From an uncultured Gammaproteobacteria bacterium (GTDB lineage Bacteria > Pseudomonadota > Gammaproteobacteria > Pseudomonadales > UBA5518): a DNA stretch of 64,000 nucleotides. The DNA lies in the NCBI GenBank assembly GCA_903938575.1, contig CAJADV010000085.1, positions 9,491 through 73,490 of the forward strand, in the 5' to 3' direction. The notes beneath the pieces are model-generated. The model saw only the letters and a program-made list of their open reading frames with translations, did not search any database and had not been told where the DNA came from. Below are positions 5,855-37,284 of this stretch, piece by piece (position 1 is the stretch's first letter; each line of letters begins with the position of its first letter). A program made the translations under genes and the position numbers.

Positions 5855-10357
<4,503 letters not shown>

Positions 10358-22841: not shown

Positions 22842-22931
22842 GGAGAGGTGCGAGAGCGGTTGAATCGACTTGACTCGAAATCAAGCGTAGGTGAAAGCCT
22901 ACCGTGGGTTCGAATCCCACCCTCTCCACCA
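22842..22931 (+). tRNA. tRNA-Ser (anticodon CGA), class II with long variable arm, encoded CCA
   Basis: Hand-folded cloverleaf. Acceptor GGAGAGG/CCTCTCC. Anticodon stem CTTGA/TCAAG with loop CTCGAAA. Variable arm GTAGG-TGAAAG-CCTAC. T arm GTGGG-TTCGAAT-CCCAC. Confidence 0.9.
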
Positions 22932-23418: not shown

Positions 23419-24102
23419 TCAGTTGCTGCCGTTTCCTGTCGAATGCCCACACAGGCTCACAAACTCAGGTACAGCCCCTGGGGAGCCAGGCAGATCATTC
23501 CAATAGGGTGAGGCAGGCGTAATCGGAGTCATGTAGGTGGGGCCGTGCGTGATGAACGCGGCGCCGTCCTGGACGATGGTGCTGGCCAGCACCATGGTTA
23601 ACCACTTGCCATTTACGCGTGACATGTAGGAAACCGGCCACGGCTGTGCCGCGACACCGGTAGCAGGGGTTACCACCGTTAGCGATATCTCACCCCGTGG
23701 TGCGATGGTCCCGAACATGTCCTGGCAGCTAATGGGCAAATCCAGGCCGGCGGGCTGAGTCGTGAACTGTGTGACCATCCATCCGGAAAAGACGCCCCGA
23801 TGGGATTGTTCGATGTAATAGATGGTCTGCTGATCGACAGGCTGAACAGTGGATCCTGCATGGAACTGTGCAGGCAGTGCGTCGGTGGGAACGTACCAAT
23901 ACGTTCCGGTCAACAGCTTGTCCCAACGGTACGCATCCTGCGCCTTGCCGATGCCGGGCGTAGTGATGGCACCAGTCTTTCCTGATTGAGGCGCTGGCTC
24001 TCCGAAGCTTCCGCTAGCGCCCATACCCAGCGTAATGGCGATGGCTGTTCTCACGGCGCACATGAAGCCGCTGCCAATTGATGATCTTGAATAACGTTCC
24101 AT
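23419..24102 (-). CDS. Hypothetical secreted protein, no recognisable family
   Basis: Start at ATG 24102 with an AGGAG SD. N-terminal hydrophobic signal-like segment (FMCAVRTAIAITLGMGASG). Codon usage is AT-richer than the flanking core genes. Confidence 0.55.
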   Translation of the reverse strand: MERYSRSSIGSGFMCAVRTAIAITLGMGASGSFGEPAPQSGKTGAITTPGIGKAQDAYRWDKLLTGTYWYVPTDALPAQFHAGSTVQPVDQQTIYYIEQSHRGVFSGWMVTQFTTQPAGLDLPISCQDMFGTIAPRGEISLTVVTPATGVAAQPWPVSYMSRVNGKWLTMVLASTIVQDGAAFITHGPTYMTPITPASPYWNDLPGSPGAVPEFVSLCGHSTGNGSN

Positions 24103-24544
24103 GAGGGTCTCCTGATGCCTGCTCACGATAGGCTGAAATCACTGAGCTATGCCATGAAAAATGGCAGACCTGCCCGCAGTAAGAGTGTATAAGTTATACG
24201 GGTTGTAAGTGAGGGATCTACCTCACCTTTTACACCACCCTAGTTGCTTCTTGGACCTCGTCGCGATGGCATCGGGGTCAGCGCAGCACCACCTCCTGCC
24301 GAGCCCTATGCAGCCTGATCTCACGAGGCTGCATGTCGGTGGAGATTTGCAACGGAGCCTACTGCCCGGCTGGCGGATGGCGCCAAACGGAAACAGTTCT
24401 GCAGCAGTCCAATCAGGCCGAGCGGACATACGTGTTTCCGCGGGCATTAAAATCAAACCAAGTGAAGGAATTTTATGAAAAAAATCGGACTCCGAATTTA
24501 CGAAGCCTATCAGTACATTTTTGACTCCAGTAAAAACCCGCTAA

Positions 24545-25777
24545 GGAAACACTGATTTATTCAGCGGATCCGCGCGCTTCAGCATGGCGGTAGTCGATAA
24601 TAGAGCGACACGATACATGACGTGGTCCTCGATGAAGCAGATCAGCTTTTCTGACGCGGAGTTCGCTGCAAAGCGTAAGGTCACGCGGCGCGAGCGGGTG
24701 TTGTCGGAGCTCGATGCGGCGGTTCCGTGGTCTGCAGTCGCTGCGGTGATTGAACCGCACTATCCGAAGGGTATCGGCGCCGGTCGCCCGCCGATCGGCC
24801 TGGAGCGGATGCTGCGGATGTATGTCGCCCAGCAGGTTCTTGGCCTCTCTGACGAAGGCATCGAGGATGCGATTTACGACAGCCAGTCGGTTCGTGGTTT
24901 CGTCGGCATTGATCTCGCTGTCGAATCGGCTCCGGATGCGACGACGCTGTTGAAGTTCCGTCGTCTGCTCGAGGGCGCAAAGCTGACCAAGGAGCTTTTC
25001 AAGGCGATCAATAGGCGTCTCGCCGACAAGGGCTTGCTCCTGCGCAATGGCACGATCGTGGATGCCACGCTGATCGCGGCAGCGCCCTCCACCAAGAACA
25101 AAGACAAACAACGCGACCCGGAGATGCACCAGTCCAAGAAGGGCAACCAGTGGTTCTTCGGGATGAAGGCGCATATCGGCGTCGATGCCGAGTCGGGGCT
25201 GGTGCACAGCGTGGTCGGCACGGCCGGCAACGTGGCAGATGTCACGCAGGTTGACCAGCTGCTGCACGGTGAAGAGCAGTGCGTGTTCGCGGATGCCGGA
25301 TACACCGGTGCCGAGAAGCGTGAAGCGGTTGCGGACAAGGACCTTGGTTGGTACATCGCGCGCAAGCGAGGTGTGATCACGAAGGCGAAGCAGGGCGGCG
25401 CGTATCGCAAAGCACTGGAAGCTGTCGAGCGTGCGAAGGCCTCTGCCCGCGCGCTCGTCGAACATCCGTTCCATGTGATCAAGAACCTGTTCCGCCATCG
25501 CAAGGTGCGGTATCGCGGGATCGAGAAGAACACCGCCCAGCTCTACACGCTGTTTGGTCTGGCGAATCTGGTGCTCTCGCGTAGAAAGCTGTCGCCGCAT
25601 TGTGGGGTTACTGCGCCTGCAGCGTGAGGAATCGGGCGAAACAGCCCGGAAAACGGGCTGAAAACGAGGCGCGAAGTCATGGAATTGGCATACCGGTGCG
25701 GTAATCGCACGATTCCGACGACTTGGTCTCTGATCTTGCCTCGCGCTCGCGGAAATCATGAATAGTTCAGCGTCTCC
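24545..25777 (+). mobile_element. IS5-family insertion sequence (1233 bp) with imperfect terminal inverted repeats
   Basis: Left end GGAAACACTGATTTATTCA vs reverse complement of the right end GGAGACGCTGAACTATTCA (15/19 by hand; 23/33 when extended). Flanked by CTAA (24541-24544) and CTAG (25778-25781), resembling the IS5 YTAR 4-bp target. Confidence 0.8.
24632..25627 (+). CDS. IS5-family DDE transposase
   Basis: MKQISFSDAEFAAKRKVTRRERVL..., DATLIAAAPSTKN, FGMKAHIGVD, ADAGYTG and VEHPFHVIKNLF...RYRGIEKN are hallmark IS5-group motifs. An upstream ATG at 24584 is an alternative start. Confidence 0.9.
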   Translation: MKQISFSDAEFAAKRKVTRRERVLSELDAAVPWSAVAAVIEPHYPKGIGAGRPPIGLERMLRMYVAQQVLGLSDEGIEDAIYDSQSVRGFVGIDLAVESAPDATTLLKFRRLLEGAKLTKELFKAINRRLADKGLLLRNGTIVDATLIAAAPSTKNKDKQRDPEMHQSKKGNQWFFGMKAHIGVDAESGLVHSVVGTAGNVADVTQVDQLLHGEEQCVFADAGYTGAEKREAVADKDLGWYIARKRGVITKAKQGGAYRKALEAVERAKASARALVEHPFHVIKNLFRHRKVRYRGIEKNTAQLYTLFGLANLVLSRRKLSPHCGVTAPAA

Positions 25778-26149: not shown

Positions 26150-27424
26150 ATGAACGAACAGGGCAGCCAAGATTTGAAACCCACCACCACTGATAAACGG
26201 GATATCCACATATTGAAAGCCTGCGGCATGAGCAGCGAGCGCCTCGCGCGCATCACGCCCTTCCTCGCGAGTTACCTGGAGAAGCGGCGCATTCCGGGAT
26301 ATGCGCTGCTGCTCGCACGGCGAGACGAAGTGGTGTTCCGCAGCGAGCAGGGCGTCAAAGACTGGGACACGCAGGAGGCGATCACGCCAGACACGATCTA
26401 CCGCATTTACTCCATGACCAAGCCCATCACCTCGGTGGCGCTGATGATGCTCTGCGAGGAGGGCCTGATTCGGCTCGAACACGAGGTGAGTCGTTACATC
26501 CCCTGCTTCGAGCACCTCGAGGTCTTCGACGGCGGCGACGCCGATACCTACCGCACGCGCAAACCCGCGCGACCCGTTCGTGTGCACGACCTCCTCACGC
26601 ACACCGCAGGCCTCACCTACGGATTCATGCACCAGCACCCGGTGGATGCGCTCTACCGTAAGCGCGGACTGGGCCAGTGGAATGCGCGCGGCGGCACGCT
26701 GGCGGAATTCGTCGAGGCACTCGCGGAATTGCCCCTACTCTTTTCACCCGGTGAGCGCTGGAACTATTCGGTGGCGACCGATGTGGTGGGGCGGTTGGTG
26801 GAGGTGGTGTCCGGCATGGCTCTGGACCGATTCCTGGAGAAGCGCATCCTCTCCCCGCTCGGCATGCGCGACACCGCGTTCTCGATCAGCGATGAGCGGC
26901 TCCCGCGCCTCGCGACCTGTTACGAAAAATCCTTCGCCGGCGGGGCCACACGCCGCCAGGACGGCGTGCAAGACAGCAGTTACCGCGGCGCGCAGAGCTA
27001 TCTCTCCGGCGGCGGAGGGCTGCTATCAACCGTCGATGATTACCTGCGCTTCAGCCAGATGCTCGCGAACGGCGGCGCGCTGAACGGCGTGCGGCTGCTC
27101 TCCCCCACCACGCTAAGGTTGATGCTGCGCAACCACTTGCCGGGCAACCAGAGTCTCGAGCACATGGGGGATTCGCTGTTCACCGAGACGCAGACCCGCG
27201 GCGCAGGTTTCGGGCTCGGCTTCTCGATCATGCTTGACGGTGTGGCGTCGCTCAGCGCCGCAGGCGCGGGCACGTATTCGTGGGGAGGCATGGCCTCGAC
27301 GTACTTCTGGGTCGATCCGGTGGAGGATCTGATCGGGATATTCATGACGCAGCTGATGCCCTCCGGGAGTTACCCCATCAGGCCGCAGATCCAGAGTCTT
27401 GCTTACGCTGCGATAGAAGAGTGA
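26150..27424 (+). CDS. Serine hydrolase of the beta-lactamase/esterase (class C / EstB-like) family
   Basis: SMTK (SxxK) nucleophile motif in YRIYSMTKPITSVALMML. YSVATD and SWGGMASTYFWVDP motifs. The start is uncertain (ATG 26084, 26150 or 26228). Confidence 0.85.
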   Translation: MNEQGSQDLKPTTTDKRDIHILKACGMSSERLARITPFLASYLEKRRIPGYALLLARRDEVVFRSEQGVKDWDTQEAITPDTIYRIYSMTKPITSVALMMLCEEGLIRLEHEVSRYIPCFEHLEVFDGGDADTYRTRKPARPVRVHDLLTHTAGLTYGFMHQHPVDALYRKRGLGQWNARGGTLAEFVEALAELPLLFSPGERWNYSVATDVVGRLVEVVSGMALDRFLEKRILSPLGMRDTAFSISDERLPRLATCYEKSFAGGATRRQDGVQDSSYRGAQSYLSGGGGLLSTVDDYLRFSQMLANGGALNGVRLLSPTTLRLMLRNHLPGNQSLEHMGDSLFTETQTRGAGFGLGFSIMLDGVASLSAAGAGTYSWGGMASTYFWVDPVEDLIGIFMTQLMPSGSYPIRPQIQSLAYAAIEE

Positions 27425-27443
27425 ACACCGGAGACCTCATGCC

Positions 27444-27700
27444 TCAAGCCTTTCGGGCGACATGGTGCAGCCTCAGGATTTCAACCTCATCACCACGCAC
27501 ACGGTAAATGGCGATGTGATTTTTGTGCAGGACCAGTTCACGGGTGCCGACGACCCGGCCTGCCCATACCGGGGTGAAGTTGCAGCCTGGACACCGCGTC
27601 CTTCAACTCCAGCACAAAGCTGGCGGCACGGCTGGGGTTGTCCTTGGCGATTAATCCAGCGATCTCATCAACGGCCGAGCAGCTGGGTCATCACGTCCGT
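27444..27700 (-). pseudogene. ParE/RelE-family toxin gene disrupted by frameshift(s)
   Basis: One frame gives ...AVDEIAGLIAKDNPSRAASFVLELKDAVSRLQLHPGMGRPGRRHP*. The continuation GTRELVLHKNHIAIYRVRGDEVEILRLHHVARKA* is in another frame. The N-terminus is also broken. Confidence 0.55.
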
Positions 27701-27839
27701 GTCCTCGATGGGCGGCAGGTCCAGCCACCAACGACAAACCTCGCCCGCAGGGCCTGCCGCTGCAAACGCTCACCGATATGGCTTCAAGCGGGCTTGGGCC
27801 TTATGCTCAGCACACAACCAATAACACCGAGAATCCTGC

Positions 27840-28451
27840 ATGAACCTCGAATCCCTCATCGACGAAGTCGCCGCACTGCGCGCCGAAGTCACGCGCCTCA
27901 CCGCCATCGAAGACGTGCGCCGCTGCAAGCACCAGTACTGGCGCTGCTTCGACACGGCCAACATCGACGGGATGCGCGAAGTGCTGCACCCCGATGTAGT
28001 GTTGAGCGTGGAAGCTGGCATCTATTCGATGCGTTACGAGGGACGTGAGCCGTATCTCGAGATGGTACGCACCGGTGCGCACGCAGACATGATCTCGCAC
28101 CACAACGGGCATCACCCGGAAATCGACATCGTCGGGCCCGAAGAGGCGATTGGCACCTGGTACCTGTACGACGATCTCTTCGAGTACCGCCGTGGCATAC
28201 GCCTTTACGGCACTGCTTTTTACCGTGACCGTTACGTCAAGCACGAAGGCCGCTGGAAGATCATCTACAGCCAGTTCCACCGGCTCTACGAGATCGTGGC
28301 CGAGCTGCCGCCGCGCGAGAGCATCCAGGCGCATTACCTCGCCACGCACGGCTACAAGCATCCCGGAACGGATCCGCTGCCTCCCTTCCCCAAGGTCAAA
28401 AGCTACAAACACGAAACCGGCGTGATGCCGCCCTTCCTCGACGCGAAGTGA
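27840..28451 (+). CDS. SnoaL-like / NTF2-fold protein
   Basis: The 203-aa sequence IEDVRRCKHQYWRCFDTANIDGMREVLHPDV...GTWYLYDDLFEY...YGTAFYRDRYVKHEGRWKI is typical of SnoaL_4-type proteins. The stop overlaps the GMC GTG start (GTGA). Confidence 0.7.
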   Translation: MNLESLIDEVAALRAEVTRLTAIEDVRRCKHQYWRCFDTANIDGMREVLHPDVVLSVEAGIYSMRYEGREPYLEMVRTGAHADMISHHNGHHPEIDIVGPEEAIGTWYLYDDLFEYRRGIRLYGTAFYRDRYVKHEGRWKIIYSQFHRLYEIVAELPPRESIQAHYLATHGYKHPGTDPLPPFPKVKSYKHETGVMPPFLDAK

Positions 28452-30004
28452 TCGACGGTCGGTGGGATGTGATCGTGGTCGGCGCCGGCTCCTCCGGCGC
28501 CGTGGTGGCCGCACGCATCACCGACGACCCTCGACTCAGGGTACTGCTGCTCGAGGCTGGACCGGAGTACTCCTCATCAGCAGCGCCGGCGGAAATGCAG
28601 CGCGGTCATTGGACCGGCATCGTCGACCGTGATCGTTTTCCCCAGTTCCAGTGGATGTCGCTCGCCGCGAAACGCAGGCCGGAACGAGATCCAGAACCGC
28701 TGTGGCAGGGACGCGGTGTAGGCGGTAGTTCTGCCATCAACGGGCAAGTTGCACTACGGCCCCCGCTGGAGGAATTCGACGAGTGGGCCGCAGCAGGCGC
28801 GCCGGAGTGGAGCGCCGCGATGGCGCTTGCGGGTTTCCGCGCCATCGAGCGCGATCTTGCCTTTGGTAATGCGCCCTTCCACGGCGATGCGGGCCCCATT
28901 CCCATCGCACGCGCAGCGTTCACCGACTGGAGTGCGCTCGACCGTGCAGTGCATTCAGCGTTCCACGCCTGCGGCCTGCCCGTGATCGAGGACTGCAACG
29001 CGCCCGGTGTGATCGGTCTCTGCGCCCTGCCCTACAACGCCCTCGACGAACGGCGCATCGCGGCTAACGAGGCCTACCTCGAGCCCATCCGCACGCGGCC
29101 CAACCTTCGGATCGTTGGGAACGCGCTGGTCGATCGCGTGGTGATCGAGTCCGGACGCGCCTGCGGTGTAATCGCGCTAATCGGCCAAGCGGAAGTGCCC
29201 ATTGCAGCGGATCGCGTGGTGCTCTCCGCCGGGGCGATTCAATCGCCCGCGATCCTGTTCCGCTCGGGCGTGGGCCCTGCGGCAGAGCTACACGCGCTGG
29301 GCATCAGGCCCCGGCTTGAGCTTCCCGTGGGACGTCGTTACCAGGAGCACCCGCATGTGTTCTTCGGCTTCCGCGTCGACCCTGCGGATGCCGTAGCACG
29401 GAATGGGCGCCACACGAACCTTTGCGCGCGTTGGTCGTCTGGCACTGCGGGAACGGGGTTCGGCGACATGATGGCCGTTGTGAACGGCCCGGCACCCGGT
29501 GCTGAACCACTGGCGGGCATCGGCTTCAGCATCAACCAGACGTTCTCGATGGGCACGCTATGCCTCGCATCGCGCGATCCGCGCATCGACCCTCGGGTAG
29601 ACATGAACCTGGCGACGGACCCGCGGGACCGTCACCGCCTGCGTGAGGCCGCTGCATTCTTCCGGCGCCTCGCAGCGACGCCCGCGCTGGCCGGTATGCT
29701 CCGGGGCGAGATCGTGGACCGCCGGGGCGAGGCCTTCCTCGCGGCATCAGACGACGCTCTCGACACGTGGATCGACGCAACCGTCGACGGGTCTGCGCAC
29801 TCCGCAGCGACCTGTCCACTGGACGCGCCGGAGCGCGCGGTGGTGGGCGCCAACGCGGGCGTGCTGGGCTTAAACGGGCTTCACGTGGTGGACATGTCGA
29901 TCACGCCCCGGAGCCCGCGCGCCAACACCAACCTCACGGCCTTCATGATCGGCGAGCATTTCGGCCGTCGCATCCGTGCACTTCACCTCCGGAGCACCGC
30001 ATGA
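28448..30004 (+). CDS. GMC-family FAD oxidoreductase (choline-dehydrogenase-like)
   Basis: WDVIVVGAGSSGAVVAARITDDP...LLLEAGPE Rossmann motif. GGSSAINGQV. C-terminal HSAATCPL...VVGANAGVLGLNGLHVVDMSITP. Confidence 0.9.
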   Translation: MIDGRWDVIVVGAGSSGAVVAARITDDPRLRVLLLEAGPEYSSSAAPAEMQRGHWTGIVDRDRFPQFQWMSLAAKRRPERDPEPLWQGRGVGGSSAINGQVALRPPLEEFDEWAAAGAPEWSAAMALAGFRAIERDLAFGNAPFHGDAGPIPIARAAFTDWSALDRAVHSAFHACGLPVIEDCNAPGVIGLCALPYNALDERRIAANEAYLEPIRTRPNLRIVGNALVDRVVIESGRACGVIALIGQAEVPIAADRVVLSAGAIQSPAILFRSGVGPAAELHALGIRPRLELPVGRRYQEHPHVFFGFRVDPADAVARNGRHTNLCARWSSGTAGTGFGDMMAVVNGPAPGAEPLAGIGFSINQTFSMGTLCLASRDPRIDPRVDMNLATDPRDRHRLREAAAFFRRLAATPALAGMLRGEIVDRRGEAFLAASDDALDTWIDATVDGSAHSAATCPLDAPERAVVGANAGVLGLNGLHVVDMSITPRSPRANTNLTAFMIGEHFGRRIRALHLRSTA

Positions 30005-30474
30005 GCACCCGCAAGCCGGTCTTCTACCATCTCTGCATCTGCGTCTCCGACCTGGAGCGGTCGCTCCGCTTCTATTGCGAGGGGCTGGGTTTCACCCGCA
30101 ACGAGAGCTTCCGGATCGGCTCCGACATGGCGCCACTGATCCAGCTCGAGGGAGAGGTGGCGCTCAGCTCGGTCTACCTCGGCCTGAGCGGCATGCGGCT
30201 CGAGCTCTGGCATTTCGAACAGCCGGTTGCGGAACGCACGGCGGCTCGGCCGATGAACAGTATCGGCCTCACCCACTTCGCGCTGCGTGTGGATGACATC
30301 GATGCCGCGATCGCCCGCGCGGAAGCTCATGGCGGACGCTGCCTGCCTGCGACACGCACGCGCGCCAACACCGACGGATTCCAGAGCGATATCGTTTATG
30401 TGCTGGATCCGGACGGAGTGCGGGTGGAACTCCTCTGGATGCCGGAGGGAACGGATCTCGCCGTGACATCCTGA
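30001..30474 (+). CDS. VOC-family (glyoxalase/bleomycin-resistance/dioxygenase) protein
   Basis: Start ATG 30001 overlaps the GMC stop (ATGA). FYHLCICVSDLERSLRFYCEGLGF...GLTHFALRVDDIDAAIARAEAHG...VLDPDGVRVEL. Confidence 0.8.
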   Translation: MSTRKPVFYHLCICVSDLERSLRFYCEGLGFTRNESFRIGSDMAPLIQLEGEVALSSVYLGLSGMRLELWHFEQPVAERTAARPMNSIGLTHFALRVDDIDAAIARAEAHGGRCLPATRTRANTDGFQSDIVYVLDPDGVRVELLWMPEGTDLAVTS

Positions 30475-30526
30475 GCCCCGACCAGCCTGCCGCAGCGGGT
30501 TGCGCGCCTTCCATGCGCACCGCTCA

Positions 30527-30790
30527 TGCACTCACCGGTGGCCCCGTCGACGGCGGACCGAGCGAGGCGGTATCGCTCTCGGCTTTCCCACGCACCTGCG
30601 CCAGGATCCGCTCGATCAGCACTGGCTCCTCGAACCTCGGCGCGGCACCAGTGCTGCCAGCCGGGCGATAAAGTCCAGTGAATCGAAAACGACATGCGTC
30701 CCGTCCCGGTACGGGATCTTCAGCAGGCACATGACCTTCCCCTGCGCAGTCACCGAGAGCCGCTTTTCGGCCACCGTCAGCTGCGCCTTG
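30527..30790 (-). pseudogene. IS91-family (Y2 HUH rolling-circle) transposase relic A, internally deleted and frame-broken
   Basis: Two frames give AEKRLSVTAQGKVMCLLKIPYRDGTHVVFDSLDFIARLAALVPRRG and then EEPVLIERILAQVRGKAESDTASLGPPSTGPPVSA. These match the IS91/ISCR motifs PYRDGTTHV.F.PLDFIARLAALVP and IEDP.VI.KIL.HL. The N-terminal catalytic part is absent. Confidence 0.65.
30528..30633. repeat. Direct repeat copy 1 (about 106 nt) shared with 35553-35658
   Basis: Gap-free hand alignment to 35553-35658 has roughly ten mismatches. The first 55 nt differ at one position. Confidence 0.8.
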
Positions 30791-31664
30791 CGACTGGCGC
30801 CGGGATCAGCCCATCCGGCCGCCAGATGAGGATGAGGATCACGAAGCCCAGCACGAAGGCATCGCGGAAAGGGAGCGCGGCATCGGGCAGAAAAGCCTGG
30901 AACAGCACCTCTAGCATGCCGAGCGCAAAGCCTCCCGCCACGGCGCCGGTGAGCGAGCCCAAGCCCCCGATGACGGCGGCGACGAAGGCCTTGAGCACCG
31001 GAACGACGCCCATCAGCGGGTCGACCGAGCCGCGCTGCGCGATCCACAATACAGCCGCCACGCCAGCAAGCGCGCCGGAAACGGCGAAGGCCACGGCGAT
31101 CACCCGGTTGGCCTTGATGCCCATCAACCGCAGCACCTGGAAGTCCTCTGCCGCGGCTCGCATCGCCTTGCCCAGCGTGGTGCGGTTGAGGAACAGGGTG
31201 AGCGCTGCAAGCGACAGCGCTGTCATGACGATCGACAGGAGCGGCACGATGCCGATGTGCAGGAAGCCGATATCAATGACGCCGGCAAAGCCCGAGGGCA
31301 GTGGCACGGGCTTGGGCCGCGCCGAAATGCCGTTCTGGAAGATCACGCGCAGGATGGCGGAGACAGCGAAACTGGTGAGCAGAAGCCCGGTCGCATCGGC
31401 TTTGCGCATGGGGCGGAATGCAAAGCGCTCGGTCAGCAGCGCCGCGATGACGGCGACTAGCACGGCGATACAGACCGCAAAAGGGAATGGCAGCGACACG
31501 GCGGCCGCGAAGAACATGCCATAGCCTGCCACGGTCATCAGCTCGCCATGCGCGAAGTTGACGAGGGAAACAATTGAGAAGACCACCGCAAGGCCCAGTG
31601 CCAGCAGCGCATAGATTCCGCCGAGACTGATGGCGTTGACGATTTGCTGCAGGACGACGTCCAT
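30777..31664 (-). CDS. livH: Branched-chain amino-acid-type ABC transporter permease (LivH-like)
   Basis: Start at internal ATG 31664 (MDVVLQQIVNAISLGGIYALLALGL...). Multi-TM with GKAMRAAAED and AAVIGGLGSLTGAV motifs. Its last codons run into IS91 relic A. Confidence 0.85.
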   Translation of the reverse strand: MDVVLQQIVNAISLGGIYALLALGLAVVFSIVSLVNFAHGELMTVAGYGMFFAAAVSLPFPFAVCIAVLVAVIAALLTERFAFRPMRKADATGLLLTSFAVSAILRVIFQNGISARPKPVPLPSGFAGVIDIGFLHIGIVPLLSIVMTALSLAALTLFLNRTTLGKAMRAAAEDFQVLRLMGIKANRVIAVAFAVSGALAGVAAVLWIAQRGSVDPLMGVVPVLKAFVAAVIGGLGSLTGAVAGGFALGMLEVLFQAFLPDAALPFRDAFVLGFVILILIWRPDGLIPAPVARRS

Positions 31665-31668
31665 AACT

Positions 31669-32370
<702 letters not shown>

Positions 32371-32397
32371 CGGGCGTCCTTCGCGTGCGGGCCAGCA

Positions 32398-33555
32398 TCA
32401 GGGCTTCGGGACGTCGGCCGGATCCGGCATGCCGGTCAGGATCGGCTTGCGCTTGCCATCCTTGATCTCGACGATGGTGATGTCGCGGGTCGGCATGCGG
32501 TTGGTACCGGCATAGGTCACCTTTCCTGTGAGCACCTCGACGTCCTTGAGGTTCGCCAGCGCGTCGCGCAGTGCCGGGCCGTCCACCGAACCCGCCGCCC
32601 TCACAGCCGCATCGAGGATGTAGGGGATCTCATAGCCGGTTGCGACATAGACCGTCTCTGGTGCTGCACCCGTCTTCTCCTTGAACTTGTCGTAGAAGGC
32701 GGCGAGCTTCGAGCCTTCGACGGGCGAACCCGCCGTGGTGTGCACGATGCCATTGGCGATGGCACCCAGCCCAGTGATGGTCGGGCTGTCTATTCCGTCA
32801 GAGCCGATGATCGGCGCCGTCACGCCAGCACCGCGCAGCTGCTGCAGAAAAGCCGGGAAGTCCGGCTCATAGGCAGCGGTCATGATGGCGTCAGGCTGCG
32901 GGTTCAGCGCCTTGATCTTGGTAACCTCGGCGGCGAAGTCCTGCTGGCCCATGGTGTAGGTGCCTTCGCCCTCGATGGTGCCGCCCTTCTTTTTGAATAC
33001 CTCTTCAAAATACTCCGGCAGCCGCAGCGTATAGGCACTGTCAGGCGACTTCAGGATGTAGATGTTCTTGTAGCCCTTCTTGGCGGCGTAGTCGGCGAGC
33101 AGCGCTGCCTGGGCGTTGTCAGCCGGATAGGTGCCGAACATGTAGTCGCCCACGGCTTCGGTGATGGTCGGCGTGGTGCCGCAGAAGGTGAGAGTGGGGA
33201 TTTGTGCCGGTTGGCTGATTTGGCCTGCGGCGATCGAAGGGTCCGCGTCGCAGGGGGTGATCATCACCTTCACGCCCTCGGCAACGAGTTCCTGTGCGGC
33301 CTGCACAGTGGCGGCCGTGTCGGTGCGTGTGTCTTTGATGTCGAGAACGATCTTGTACTTGCCGGCAAGTCCGCCCGTGGCATTGAGTTCCTCGACCGCC
33401 ATCTTGAAGCCGGCAAGCGAGGGCTGGTCTGAATAGGCGAGAGCGCCGGTCTGGCCGGTAGCGAGGCCGATCGTGATGTCCTCGGCGGCAGCTGCCGTGG
33501 TGAGGCCGGCGAGACCCACGGCACTGGCCAGCATGGCGAAGCGGAAGTTCGTCAT
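32398..33555 (-). CDS. Periplasmic substrate-binding protein (LivK/Peripla_BP_6-like)
   Basis: Signal peptide MTNFRFAMLASAVGLAGLTTAAAA, then ITIGLATGQTGALAY...GFKMAVEELNATGG, typical of the family. Confidence 0.85.
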   Translation of the reverse strand: MTNFRFAMLASAVGLAGLTTAAAAEDITIGLATGQTGALAYSDQPSLAGFKMAVEELNATGGLAGKYKIVLDIKDTRTDTAATVQAAQELVAEGVKVMITPCDADPSIAAGQISQPAQIPTLTFCGTTPTITEAVGDYMFGTYPADNAQAALLADYAAKKGYKNIYILKSPDSAYTLRLPEYFEEVFKKKGGTIEGEGTYTMGQQDFAAEVTKIKALNPQPDAIMTAAYEPDFPAFLQQLRGAGVTAPIIGSDGIDSPTITGLGAIANGIVHTTAGSPVEGSKLAAFYDKFKEKTGAAPETVYVATGYEIPYILDAAVRAAGSVDGPALRDALANLKDVEVLTGKVTYAGTNRMPTRDITIVEIKDGKRKPILTGMPDPADVPKP

Positions 33556-33581
33556 GGTGGTTTCCTCCTGTTGTGTTTTTA

Positions 33582-35378
33582 TCAGTGTTTTGCCCGTTTG
33601 GTTCCAATATAGGCCTCGATAACCTTCGGGTCGCCGCGGATCTCCTGCGGCGTACCCTCGGCAATCTTCTGGCCCTTGTTCAGCACCACCATACGGTCGG
33701 ACAGCCGCATGATGAGCCGCATGTCGTGCTCCACAACAAGGAGACCGATCTCGTGGTCGGCGCGGATCGACTCGAGCACGCGGATGAGCGCATCCGTCTC
33801 CGCCGGGTTCATGCCGGCGGCAGGCTCATCGAGCAACAGGAACTTTGGCTCGAGCGCCAGCGCACGGGCGATCTCCAGGCGCCGCCGATCGCCATAGGCG
33901 AAGGAGCCCGCCAGGTCCTCGGCGCGGTGCGCGAGCCCCAGACGGGCAAGCTCGGCGAGGGCGACGCGGCGCGCATTCGCAGCATCGTGGCCCTTGGAGA
34001 GGGCGGCGACGGTGACATTTTCCAGCGCCGACATACGGTCAAAGAGCCGGATGTTCTGAAAGGTACGTCCGAGCCCTGCCACCGCCACGCGGTGCGGGGC
34101 CTCGCCCGTCATTTCCGTACCGCCGATGACGATGCGGCCCGCGGTGGGCTTCGTCTGGCCACAGATGATGTTGATGAGCGTCGTCTTGCCTGCGCCGTTG
34201 GGCCCGATGAGCCCGGTGACCTGCCCAGGCGGCACGACGAAGCTGATGTTGTCGAGCGCCACCAGGCCACCGAAGCGCATGGTGATGGAGTCAATCTCAA
34301 GCGGGGCACCGGCGGGCGCTGTGTGGAGGGCGTCGGACGGAATGGGCTCCAGCTTGCGCCGCGGCCAGTCAGGACCTATCTCGCGAAGCCCCATGAGACC
34401 CAGCGGACGGCGCCAGATGGTCAGCAGGAGTGCCAGCCCCATGCCGAGTTGCGGCAGGCCGAAAATGCCGGGAATGTGCAGCGACCCGAGATCGACGCCG
34501 GTTTCTGCCTGGCGCAGGATCTGCACCACTCCAGCAAGCAGCACCGTGCCCGCGACCGCACCGCTCACGGTCAGCATGCCGCCGACGATCAGCATGGCTA
34601 TAAGCGTGAAGATCAGGTCAAAGTAGAAGTCCTTAGGCGAAAAGGCGCCGAGGAAGCTGCCATAGAGAGCACCGATCACCACGCTCATGGTGATGCTCAA
34701 TGCCCAGCCCTGGTGCCGCGACAGGCGGACATTGACGCCCGAGGCCGCCGCCGCCACCTCGTTCTCGCGCGCCGCTCGCAGCCTGAGGCCCAGCGGCGTT
34801 TCACGCAGGATGCGGGCAATGAGGATGAATACCCCCGCGGCGAGGAAGGCGACGTACACGGTGGTGAGGCGCGGGACACCGTAAAAGGTTTGGCTGCCGC
34901 GGGTGAAGTCACGCGCACCGACCAACGTCACGTGGATGATGATCAGAAAGGCCAGCGTGCCGATCGCCGCGGAGCCGGTCGCAAGCCTGGCCAGCGGAAA
35001 ACCGGAGAGGATGCCGACGACGAGACCCGCCGCTGCCACAAGGAGAAGTGCTGCTGCCAGCGACATCTGGTGGCCCAGCAACCACACCGGCAGGTCAGGC
35101 AGGGCGGAGGCCTGAATGGCCTTGGGCATCACGAGTACGCCGAAGACATAGGCCCCGATCCCCATGAAGGCGGAATGGCCGAAGGACACGATCCCCGAAT
35201 TGCCACTGAAAGTGGCGAGTGCCAGCACGGCCGAGACCTGTAGCAGCGTCAGGGTGGCGATGTTGACCCCGGTGTTGCCGAAGATCAGCGACACCACCAG
35301 CGCAAGCGCGCCAACGCCTGCAATGAGCAGCAAGGCGCTGGTCCATGCTCGTGGCGGAACGCCGGTCCAGGGGAGCAT
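33582..35378 (-). CDS. Fused LivM-like permease / LivG-like ATPase
   Basis: The N-terminal about 340 aa are multi-TM. The C-terminal half has Walker A GPNGAGKTT, signature YGDRRRLEIARAL and Walker B LLLLDEPAAG. Confidence 0.85.
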   Translation of the reverse strand: MLPWTGVPPRAWTSALLLIAGVGALALVVSLIFGNTGVNIATLTLLQVSAVLALATFSGNSGIVSFGHSAFMGIGAYVFGVLVMPKAIQASALPDLPVWLLGHQMSLAAALLLVAAAGLVVGILSGFPLARLATGSAAIGTLAFLIIIHVTLVGARDFTRGSQTFYGVPRLTTVYVAFLAAGVFILIARILRETPLGLRLRAARENEVAAAASGVNVRLSRHQGWALSITMSVVIGALYGSFLGAFSPKDFYFDLIFTLIAMLIVGGMLTVSGAVAGTVLLAGVVQILRQAETGVDLGSLHIPGIFGLPQLGMGLALLLTIWRRPLGLMGLREIGPDWPRRKLEPIPSDALHTAPAGAPLEIDSITMRFGGLVALDNISFVVPPGQVTGLIGPNGAGKTTLINIICGQTKPTAGRIVIGGTEMTGEAPHRVAVAGLGRTFQNIRLFDRMSALENVTVAALSKGHDAANARRVALAELARLGLAHRAEDLAGSFAYGDRRRLEIARALALEPKFLLLDEPAAGMNPAETDALIRVLESIRADHEIGLLVVEHDMRLIMRLSDRMVVLNKGQKIAEGTPQEIRGDPKVIEAYIGTKRAKH

Positions 35379-35524
35379 TGGGTGTCCTTGGTGTGCAAGG
35401 CCTCGAGCCTACCATGGGCTTGCGCGGCGCGAGCCATTGGACTTTATCGCTCGCTCCCCTCGGCACAGCACCACCCCCTGTCGATCCCCGATCGCAGCCT
35501 CCCCGCTCCCTAGATGCATGCAAT

Positions 35525-35830
35525 TCACGCACTGTCCGTGTGCGCCACGCACGCACTCACCGGCGGCCCCGTCGACGGCGGACCGAGCGAGGCGGTATCG
35601 CTCTCGGTCTTCCCCCGCACATGCGCCAGGATTCGCTCGATCAGCGCCGGTTCCTCGATGCTCCCTACGACCCGCACAGCCTTGCCGCAGCGCACGCAGG
35701 TCTCGACGTCGATGCTGAATGGGTAGTACTGCTCCACCAACCGGCAGAGACTCGTTTGCTCGCGATGGTGGCGCGCGAAGGCGAGTCCACCGGCGGCTTG
35801 TGCCGTATGCGTGCATCGGCTGCGCCTCCT
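35525..35830 (-). pseudogene. IS91-family transposase relic B (C-terminal fragment only)
   Basis: ...SLCRLVEQYYPFSIDVETCVRCGKAVRVVGSIEEPALIERILAHVRGKTESDTASLGPPSTGPPVS contains the Zn-ribbon and C-terminal tail of IS91-type transposases. There is no upstream catalytic region. Same orientation as relic A. Confidence 0.6.
35553..35658. repeat. Direct repeat copy 2 (pairs with 30528-30633)
   Basis: See copy 1. The offset between copies is 5025 nt. Confidence 0.8.
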
Positions 35831-35961
35831 TGCGCAATCGGGTAGTGGCTCAGTGTCGGCTCACCACCATGTGCATGACGATCAGGCGATCCGTCGCCAC
35901 TCACGCTGCGGTAGAAGAGTGAACACGGCCCCGACACCCGCCGGGGCCGCTCACAAAAGGC

Positions 35962-37284
35962 TCAGTGGCTGGAAACCACCGTGAACTGCTCTTCCTCGGT
36001 GGAGCCGGTGAGTGCAGTCACCGACGAGGCGCCGCCCTGGATGCAGGTGGTCACCTGGTCGAAGTAACCGGTGCCCACTTCCTGCTGGTGGCTCACGAAG
36101 CTGTAACCGCGGCTCGCGGCAGCGAATTCCTTTTCCTGCAGCTCGACGTAGGAGGTCATGCCGTTGCGGGCATAGCCGTAGGCGAGTTCGAACATGTTGT
36201 ACCACATGCTGTGAATGCCGGCCAACGTGATGAACTGATACTTGTATCCCATCGCACCGAGCTCGCGCTGGAACTTCGCGATGGTCGCGTCATCGAGGTG
36301 TTTCTTCCAGTTGAAGGACGGCGAGCAGTTGTAGGCGAGCAGCTGGTCGGGGTACTGCTTCCGGATCGCCTCGGCAAACACGCGGGCTTCGTCGAGATCG
36401 GGCTTCGCAGTCTCGCACCAGATGAGATCCGCGTAGGGCGCGTAGGCAAGACCACGGCTGATCGCCTGGTCGATACCAGCGCGCACGTTGTAGAAACCTT
36501 CGGCGGTGCGCGAGCCCGTAACGAAGGGCTTGTCGTTGTCGTCGTGGTCGCTGGTGAGCAATGTGGCTGCGTTGGCATCGGTGCGCGCCAGCACGATGGT
36601 GGGCGTGCCGCAGACATCGGCTGCCAGCCGCGCGGCGATCAGCTTCTGCACCGCTTCCTGCGTGGGCACCAGCACCTTGCCGCCCATGTGGCCGCACTTC
36701 TTGACCGAGGCGAGCTGGTCCTCGAAGTGCACGCCTGCGGCGCCGGCCTCGATCATGGCCTTCATCAGTTCAAAGGCGTTCAGCACGCCGCCGAAACCCG
36801 CCTCTGCATCAGCCACGATAGGGGCGAAGTAATCGACGTATTTGGCATCGTGGGGACCGACGTTATTGGCCCACTGGATCTGGTCTGCCCGGCGGAAGGC
36901 ATTGTTGATGCGGCTCACCACGGCGGGGACGGAATTGACGGGGTAGAGGGACTGGTCGGGGTACATGGTCTGGGCGGAGTTGTTATCGGCGGCCACTTGC
37001 CAGCCCGAGAGGTAGATCGCCTTGACGCCAGCCTTGACCTGCTGCACGGCCTGCCCGCCAGTGAGGGCGCCGAGGCAGTTGATGTAGTCCTCTTCGTGGA
37101 TGTACTTCCACAGCTTCTGGGCCCCCAGCTCGGCCAGGGTGTTCTGTGGCTGCAGCGAGCCCCGGAGCTGCACGACGTCGGCGGCGGAATACCCGCGCTT
37201 GACGCCCTTCCAGCGCGGGTTTTCCGCCCAGTCCTTCTCGAGAAGGGCAATTTGGCCGGCACGGGTGGAGGTGTGGATAGTCAT
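35962..37284 (-). CDS. aceA: Isocitrate lyase
   Basis: 440 aa. KKCGHMGGK active-site signature, [11 protein letters not shown], and the N-terminal [25 protein letters not shown]. Confidence 0.95.

Follow-up and report, generated by a model that had tools for sequence, protein, structure and literature searches.

Insertion sequence common region (ISCR) elements and their IS91-type relatives are a familiar route of gene acquisition. To our knowledge, work on ISCR elements has been confined almost wholly to their role as carriers of antibiotic resistance on clinical plasmids, and demonstrations of their transposition are rare. The locus described here lies in a stretch of 64,000 nucleotides (nt) from an uncultured gammaproteobacterium (contig CAJADV010000085.1 of assembly GCA_903938575.1, positions 9,491 to 73,490 of the forward strand), referred to below as the window, and consists of one operon for a LIV-type ABC transporter bracketed by the remains of two ISCR elements, called relic A and relic B, next to the isocitrate lyase gene aceA. 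An ISCR-associated acquisition of the operon, followed by decay of the elements, is well supported by the results given below. The locus is an environmental, decayed counterpart of the resistance units bracketed by ISCR1 or ISCR2, and involves no new kind of element or mechanism.

One-ended rolling-circle transposition of IS91 and IS1294 is the model for the mobilisation of DNA lying beyond terIS (PMC6218425, PMC13393415). The relics have the superfamily in common with these elements (Y2_Tnp, PF04986), but no oriIS-proximal or terIS-bypass junction survives at this locus. The closest well-known element is ISCR2 (ISVsa3), found in sul2, floR and tet(X) units, and relatives of the relics carry an ISCR2-type oriIS motif at a like distance past the transposase stop codon. 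In ISCR2 units, as here, the cargo is bracketed by whole or truncated co-oriented copies (e.g., the truncated ISVsa3 beside floR in L007), and 'ISCR2-mediated transposition and recombination' has been credited for the composite ISCR2-cargo-ISCR2 structures that carry tet(X) (PMC7722449). The present locus differs in that its cargo is a metabolic ABC transporter and not a resistance gene, in its position on the chromosome of an environmental bacterium, and in the state of the two copies, which are eroded to about 300-400 nt without oriIS, HUH motif or catalytic tyrosine and belong to a separate lineage with an intact member in metagenome contig L119.

A second parallel is provided by ISCR1 in complex class 1 integrons, where the cargo lies downstream (on the oriIS side) of a co-oriented ISCR copy and where the oriIS region provides outward promoters for it (PMC6218425). 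The cargo studied here, which is without its native -35 box, likewise lies downstream of relic B. In contrast to ISCR1, the locus showed no integron context, the sequence kept past the stop codon of relic B is limited to the first ~95 nt, and a promoter scan of positions 35300-36000 returned no consensus sigma-70 site; a promoter supplied by relic B in the manner of ISCR1 would be conjecture. With respect to the cargo itself, all five functional parts of the LIV-I/HAAT transporters (LivJ/K-H-M-G-F) are present, but LivM and LivG are fused.

The locus is of interest as a clean, datable environmental ISCR case, in which the end points of a cross-class transporter transfer can be read to the nucleotide against a donor-type cluster. 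The ancestral site of the recipient is known from a related genome, and several stages of decay and rearrangement coexist in one population, which makes the locus a useful natural series on how rolling-circle elements capture and then lose genes.

Two co-oriented transposase relics around one operon

A repeat search of the window identified a gap-free direct repeat of 136 nt in two copies, 85% identical to each other (Table 1). An earlier note on this DNA had described two minus-strand relics sharing a gap-free repeat of about 106 nt, and alignment of 30528-30633 with 35553-35658 agreed with this, giving 9 mismatches in 106 nt. The exact 41-nt core of the repeat (30542-30582 = 35567-35607) occurs twice in the window, against an expectation of 0 from shuffled sequences, and this shuffle test ruled out a chance or low-complexity repeat. 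The content of the repeat is the last ~35 transposase codons plus the first ~25 nt past the stop codon.

Residue numbers of the relics were obtained by mapping onto the intact 496-amino-acid (aa) transposase of L119 (gene at L119 1976-3466), which belongs to the lineage of the relics and is ~80% identical to them. This contig was recovered by scanning the JGI metagenomes with protein P0013; a search of JGI metagenomes for exact occurrences of a 24-nt repeat core gave no match. With the ISCR2 and the intact L119 transposases as tblastn queries, relic A resolved into two parts, 30640-30774 (residues 338-383) and 30527-30634 (residues ~462-496). The native stop codon of relic A (TGA, 30524-30526) is followed by ~50 nt of 3' untranslated region (UTR) up to the stop codon of the glyoxalase gene, and, relative to other strains, the relic has an internal deletion of 164 nt at ~30635-30639, the long form being found in L002 and L089.

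Relic B had been taken for one fragment, and this has to be revised: its 5' part comprises a leader and a TTG start codon (35837), residues 1-12 (35802-35837) and, frameshifted, residues 11-39 (35723-35809), and residues 1-39 are joined in frame to residues 441-496 (35552-35719). The stop codon of relic B is mutated from TGA to TGC, with the open reading frame (ORF) extending to 35525, and ~95 nt of 3' UTR are kept past the native stop position. Both relics are on the minus strand, and they flank 30770-35430 as two co-oriented ISCR copies.

The IS91-family assignment and common orientation given to the relics in the earlier note were correct, and the family can be named more exactly. The relic A piece matches the NCBIfam model NF052416 (ISCR_clade_Ia, 'ISCR element clade Ia family transposase') with E 4.1e-12 at model positions 342-388 of 509, and the C-terminal piece of relic B matches it with E 1.7e-13 at positions 454-509. 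The match of relic A to Pfam Y2_Tnp is weak (E 0.0045), and a Pfam search of the C-terminal pieces of the relics gave no match; these pieces correspond to transposase residues 441-496, beyond the part matched by Y2_Tnp, and placing them needed the NCBIfam ISCR model. A composite of the relic pieces had 3512 protein matches (best E 3e-77, 80% identity), with PF04986 in nearly all of the matches listed. Because close metagenome relatives score far better on the ISCR_clade_Ia model than on the IS91 equivalog model (1.5e-101 vs only 1e-11), the elements are placed in the ISCR branch of the IS91 superfamily. Read on the minus strand, relic A gives 'VAEKRLSVTAQGKVMCLLKIPYRDGTHVVFDSLDFIARLAALVPR', which shares 70% identity with ISCR2/ISVsa3 transposase residues 332-377; at the nucleotide level, blastn gave 72% identity between window positions 30643-30776 and ISVsa3, and a composite stitched from window and strain-variant pieces has ~48% amino-acid identity to ISVsa3.

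Two shorter pieces were detected in addition to the relics. Fragment C, which lies between relic B and the cargo and directly abuts the cargo 5' end, is a probable, not a certain, transposase piece: it agrees with the intact L119 gene at 20 of 27 nt, and a single further site in the window reaches at least 19. In other strains it is 45 nt long (EPLDFIARAVGTAPR). Fragment D sits between a gene of the beta-lactamase family and a SnoaL-GMC-glyoxalase module. A fifth ISCR remnant was observed outside the window, in contig L091 (2288-2974, plus strand), as a 228-aa Y2_Tnp ORF covering residues ~315-473. A distance of 30 nt separates it from the downstream beta-lactamase-family gene, which has the same orientation, and it stands at the rraA-side end of the block between this gene and the glyoxalase gene. 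An rve fragment and a gene with a BPSS1860 domain precede it.

Table 1. Features of the ISCR-bracketed transporter locus and its borders, in window coordinates.
Feature	Position	Strand	Basis or remark
Direct repeat, copy 1	30503..30638	.	ISCR transposase C-terminal codons and post-stop nt
Direct repeat, copy 2	35528..35663	.	85% identical to copy 1
Relic A, ISCR-type transposase gene truncated 5' and 3'	30475..30775	-	tblastn, NCBIfam, blastn
Relic B, ISCR-type element with internal deletion	35458..35857	-	tblastn mapping, NCBIfam ISCR_clade_Ia
Fragment C, probable inverted ISCR transposase piece ('EPLDFIAR', residues ~368-375)	35431..35457	+	Inverted repeat with relic A
Fragment D, 18-codon ISCR transposase remnant, residues 251-268	27674..27727	-	tblastn E 5e-6 to 8.6e-5, queries P0013 and L119 transposase
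Cargo, 4.66 kb, alphaproteobacterial (Aestuariivirga-type)	30770..35430	-	DNA homology to L113/L112
Fused LivM/LivG (BPD_transp_2 + ABC_tran)	33582-35378	-	Pfam/NCBIfam
LivK-type binding protein (Peripla_BP_6), 385 aa	32398-33555	-	Pfam/NCBIfam
LivF	31669-32370	-	Pfam/NCBIfam
LivH	30777-31664	-	Pfam/NCBIfam
aceA (isocitrate lyase), conserved chromosomal border of mosaic	35962..37284	-	Homology to related genome L009
SnoaL_4 / GMC oxidoreductase / glyoxalase module	27840..30474	+	Pfam

An alphaproteobacterial-type transporter in a gammaproteobacterial chromosome

Exactly one operon lies between the relics, as had been stated earlier: LivMG-LivK-LivF-LivH, four co-oriented genes that encode two BPD_transp_2 permease domains, two ABC ATPases and a Peripla_BP_6 binding protein, the full part set of a HAAT (LIV-I type) transporter. 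DNA homology delimits this cargo sharply, in that contig L113 covers exactly 30770-35430 (85.3%) and contig L112 covers 30771-35414 (80.8%), and neither covers anything else in the window. The cargo proteins are 91-95% identical to those of four genes inside an Aestuariivirga-type cluster of ten genes. The best named homologues of LivMG are from Aestuariivirga sp. (Alphaproteobacteria, Hyphomicrobiales; 87-91% identity), which bears out the alphaproteobacterial likeness that had been guessed from the LivM-LivG fusion. Amongst the best 120 LivMG matches, every informative organism name is alphaproteobacterial and none is gammaproteobacterial, and the 90% cluster of the binding protein includes an Aestuariivirga sp. 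RefSeq protein (at least 90% identity).

Donor-type gene contexts were looked up from proteins P0139, P0121 and P0131. On four alphaproteobacterial-type contigs, genes for formylglutamate amidohydrolase (FGase), a glutamine-synthetase-like protein, isochorismatase and RpiR stand on one side of LivMG-LivK-LivF-LivH (RpiR <> LivMG), and an aminotransferase gene followed by APH/M23/aminotransferase genes stands on the other. The four cargo genes and their alphaproteobacterial counterparts are colinear, and the ratio of nonsynonymous to synonymous divergence (dN/dS) between them is 0.04-0.10 at dS 0.6-0.7. Because of these low ratios, and because the four liv ORFs are intact in every strain variant that carries them, the cargo genes are under purifying selection in the new host. 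On sequence grounds, the transporter is a foreign, horizontally acquired system of alphaproteobacterial type, cut from a larger conserved catabolic cluster and now residing in a gammaproteobacterial chromosome.

The designation 'Liv' is a family label only, because none of the four proteins comes near its NCBIfam equivalog cut-off (e.g., LivF 239 vs 441, binding protein 95 vs 477) and because of the donor-type context, whose formylglutamate amidohydrolase, glutamine-synthetase-like and aminotransferase genes suggest another amine, amide or nitrogenous compound as the predicted substrate. The cargo includes 52 nt of native upstream sequence, in which an extended -10-like box (TG-N-TAGGCT) is kept and the native TTGACA -35 box is lost. 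Expression of the liv genes would presumably start from the retained extended -10 box or depend on read-through out of relic B.

The recipient site was compared with that of L009, a metagenome-assembled genome (MAG) and the only close genome amongst the GTDB species representatives (AceA 97% identical, DNA ~79%). The right flank of the locus (aceA, lysR, malate synthase G and aceK) is syntenic with L009, and similarity extends no further than the aceA stop codon. Beyond aceA, L009 has ~160 nt and then rraA, a JmjC gene and a gene for gamma-glutamyltranspeptidase; the liv genes are absent from this aceA-rraA site, an outcome of the synteny check that agrees with their arrival from elsewhere. 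On contigs of the window population, rraA-JmjC stands at the far end of a block with the order beta-lactamase-family, hexapeptide, SnoaL, GMC, glyoxalase, relic A and liv. The simplest reading is that all DNA between aceA and rraA would be an inserted mosaic; at least four ISCR fragments lie in this gap.

A native operon would have the liv genes ancestral to the gammaproteobacterium and the ISCR elements inserted later on both sides of them. The GC content of the liv genes and their GC content at third codon positions (GC3) match the flanks, which fits such a history. However, the absence of the genes from the syntenic L009 site, the homologues at 83-91% identity in a conserved alphaproteobacterial ten-gene context, the organism names of the LivMG matches, and segment limits that fall within a promoter and 3-6 nt beyond a stop codon, the latter overlapping the start of the next gene in the donor-type cluster, all argue against it, and we regard a native origin as extremely improbable.

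Joins between the transporter genes and the relics

At the 3' side, the LivH 3' end had been thought to run into relic A. LivH is instead complete, because its C-terminus ('...RPDGLIPAPVARRS') is identical to that of the Aestuariivirga protein and its own native stop codon is kept; relic A starts right after it. The join reads TGA-CGGTGGCC-GAAAAG, of which GGTGGC is common to the alphaproteobacterial post-livH sequence and to ISCR codons ~337-339. The 3' limit of the cargo lies 3-6 nt past the livH stop codon, which in the donor-type cluster overlaps the ATG of the next gene. At the 5' side, ...GGCTC (inverted ISCR codon ~368) is joined to GCGCCGCGC of the promoter spacer, and the 5' limit of the cargo lies inside the spacer of the donor-type promoter. 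Both cargo ends touch internal ISCR sequence directly, with no other foreign DNA between. The joins look like microhomology-type illegitimate joins inside transposase or 3'-UTR sequence and not like element termini. They place ISCR DNA physically beside the cargo without identifying the reaction that moved it.

The form of these joins bears on whether the relics were bystanders. The transporter could have entered a variable region, one that also collects ISCR elements, by plasmid integration, by integration of an integrative and conjugative element (ICE), or by natural transformation and illegitimate recombination, with the abutment produced by later deletions only. That all junctions are of the microhomology type fits such a history, as do the other mobile or variable components of the region (an intact IS5-family transposase and tRNA-Ser, with hicBA and an IS3 orfA fragment in other strains) and the demonstrably high frequency of deletions at the locus. 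The direct contact of both cargo ends with ISCR sequence speaks against it, and the neighbouring module is ISCR-bracketed too (by fragment D and relic A in the window, and by the 228-aa Y2_Tnp remnant in L091). Additionally, the stretch examined showed neither an integrase nor an att-like repeat, integrases having been sought only by a Pfam scan of neighbouring ORFs. On balance, a bystander role of the relics appears unlikely.

Rearranged forms in other strains

Structural variants were surveyed in ~30 metagenome contigs, most of which have 96.5-99.8% identity to the window in the shared DNA; the relic-liv unit was seen only in ~98-99% identical DNA from one metagenome population. Form (a) is that of the window. 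In form (b), aceA is followed by ISCR residues 1-47, hicB/hicA, residues 362-~433 and liv, without the C-terminal segment present in the window, and form (c) is like (b) with the N-terminal piece cut after 72 nt by an IS3 orfA fragment. In form (d), the neighbour of liv is not aceA but an adh_short-AtuA-thiolase-PQQ cluster, joined to it through the final 45 nt of hicA. Form (e) (L095/L097) has no liv genes; its glyoxalase gene is followed by the last ~135 nt of relic A, which give way to unrelated DNA at window position 30609. Relic A is further polymorphic for the 164-nt internal deletion.

The best account of forms (a) and (b) would be that each arose from a fuller ancestor by a different deletion. 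Most variant breakpoints lie in or at the relics or the hicBA insert, and the far-side breakpoints of (d) and (e) lie in unplaced DNA. The variant-specific flanks (the 'lactonase' of L095, the adh_short-AtuA-thiolase-PQQ cluster of L089 and the IS3 fragment of L002) showed no link to the window or to L009, and the L089 flank had only weak (about 67-69%) matches to an unrelated MAG contig, L016. Assembly chimeras are an unlikely source of the variants, because the repeats are only ~90% alike.

The hicB/hicA toxin-antitoxin pair was observed inside relic B in other strains (L003 4463-4881; L098, L103-L106, L002), where it replaces residues 48-361, and has been lost in the window strain. In contig L098, identity to the window is 96.5% on the aceA side and 98.6% in the liv segment; an exchange of the cargo region between strains may be younger than the divergence of the core flank.

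Recombination between two insertion sequence copies had been put forward as the alternative to transposition. In its fullest form, two co-oriented ISCR copies would recombine to release a circle of one copy plus the cargo (a translocatable unit), which would integrate into a resident ISCR copy downstream of aceA without any rolling-circle step. Relics A and B are indeed co-oriented with a common C-terminal segment, ISCR2-cargo-ISCR2 composites have been described for tet(X) (PMC7722449), and the presence of at least four ISCR fragments at the site implies that resident targets existed. Nevertheless, 85% identity over 136 nt is a poor RecA substrate, and the cargo ends abut fragment C and relic A codon 338, not full copies. 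No strain was found with the reciprocal solo hybrid relic between the glyoxalase gene and aceA, the liv-less L095/L097 contigs breaking at 30609 into unrelated DNA. Integration of a translocatable unit is consequently disfavoured, and we consider it quite improbable.

Loss of the catalytic core and the oriIS

Only residues 1-39, 251-268, 338-383 and 441/462-496 of the 496 transposase residues are left in the window. The HUH region ('IHLHLL') and the tyrosine motif 'CRYIARP' (which ends at residue 336), both read from the L119 protein, are absent from every piece. An oriIS-type motif, TTTAT-N4-5-CCTATAC, is found 220-290 nt past the stop codon in nearly all related loci checked, including ISCR2, L119 and a mini-element in L107, which is the published oriIS position. 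No match to this motif was found on either strand of the whole 64-kb window. The transposases have decayed as the earlier note proposed: relics A and B are dead and without an origin, and because of this the unit is now fixed.

The sequence '...GGTGCTGTGCCGAGG' was first taken as the 3' end of relic B, since three copies seemed to diverge there; this assignment was rejected, as the oriIS motif of intact relatives lies ~150 nt further on. On the 5' side, homology among the window, L119 and L107, which represent three independent contexts, begins at 'ACTGAG' (~35857), ~20 nt before the TTG start codon. No terIS consensus is known for this lineage, and a terIS-side end may be kept in relic B. DNA folding of the relic ends gave z-scores of about 0 and no unusual hairpin, and alignment of the relic ends with those of ISCR2 showed no similarity. 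The check for oriIS- and terIS-like ends thus found neither an oriIS motif nor a hairpin, and the shared 5' homology start is compatible with a true 5' end.

The mini-element (L107 3001-3624 and flanks, also in L108-L110) is an internally deleted 'mini-ISCR' of the lineage of the relics, with an open 207-aa ORF (P0120) that fuses N- and C-terminal parts in frame, and it keeps the oriIS motif 257 nt past its stop codon. The copies found (L107-L110) are all in one context, between aminotransferase-aldehyde dehydrogenase genes and SGL, and give no evidence of mobility.

Probable acquisition and trimming of the unit

We consider it probable that the cargo was brought in by ISCR elements or with their help, and that later deletions trimmed all but the selected genes. 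One or more live ISCR copies would have stood beside the transporter genes on a donor or intermediate replicon and would have moved or recombined these genes into the site downstream of aceA; microhomology-mediated deletions would then have cut both elements and cargo back to the four selected genes. The proposal that the operon arrived as cargo of one-ended rolling-circle transposition can be retained in part, as the cargo is foreign and flanked by ISCR sequence, but no oriIS and no element-end junction documents that mechanism.

Several observations weigh against an ISCR-driven acquisition. A canonical ISCR end is present at none of the junctions, and so no join can be attributed to the elements' own transposition chemistry, and relics A and B are only 85-90% alike and thus are not two recent copies of one active element. 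The ancestral state of the site rests on one related genome (L009, DNA ~79% identical), and no contig spans the distance from aceA to rraA, the single mosaic being pieced together from overlapping variants. Additionally, dS between the cargo and the closest alphaproteobacterial lineage in the sample is 0.6-0.7. None of the sampled alphaproteobacteria is therefore the immediate donor, and either the true donor is missing from the sample or the transfer happened long ago. GC content, GC skew and GC3 gave no island signal, the cargo not being distinct from its flanks, and a search of plasmids for the whole unit returned only short ATPase-motif matches and no plasmid-borne intermediate.

A wider and more tentative possibility, which we regard as doubtful, is that the aceA-rraA gap holds a 'metabolic ISCR array', comparable to the resistance arrays of complex class 1 integrons. 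ISCR elements would have delivered single-function modules repeatedly and from different donors (among others, an alphaproteobacterial uptake system cut back precisely to the stretch from promoter to stop codon and an oxidoreductase/glyoxalase module), with a nutritional role in wastewater-type communities, and the 'mini-ISCR' derivatives with joined N- and C-terminal parts (relic B, L107) would be recurrent by-products or non-autonomous partners.

The remainder of the mosaic

The SnoaL_4-GMC-glyoxalase module, between fragment D and relic A, is absent beside aceA in L009 and forms part of the inserted mosaic. A homologue search for the origin of the GMC module was uninformative, the named matches being actinobacterial or Chloroflexi proteins of 42-46% identity. 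At the other border, a hairpin can be read directly from the sequence at 35927-35948, downstream of the aceA stop codon.

In the window strain, the rraA side is replaced by other DNA, which includes the IS5-family transposase and tRNA-Ser. The IS5-family ORF (24584-25627, plus strand, 347 aa; DDE_Tnp_1 E 1e-36, and DUF772) appears intact and lies between tRNA-Ser and the beta-lactamase-family gene. This stretch is not common to L089-type strains, whose left flank consists of rraA-JmjC-MazE/Fic and the gamma-glutamyltranspeptidase gene (GGT). The tRNA-Ser gene (anticodon CGA; 22842-22931, plus strand), the only match in an Rfam scan, directly follows purC at the point where similarity of the window to the other strain type ends, and may mark an island border. 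Two minus-strand ORFs in this region (23419-24126 and 24557-25759) had no Pfam match.

The beta-lactamase-family (PF00144) gene of the window (26217-27428) is 94-95% identical to that of L089 (4521-5732), vs 99% for the adjoining DNA, and the hexapeptide-repeat gene of L089 and L091 is missing from the window (27428-27702); this region looks like the product of allelic replacement plus deletion. Far from the liv locus, positions 5855-10357 of the minus strand contain an ORF of 1500 aa.

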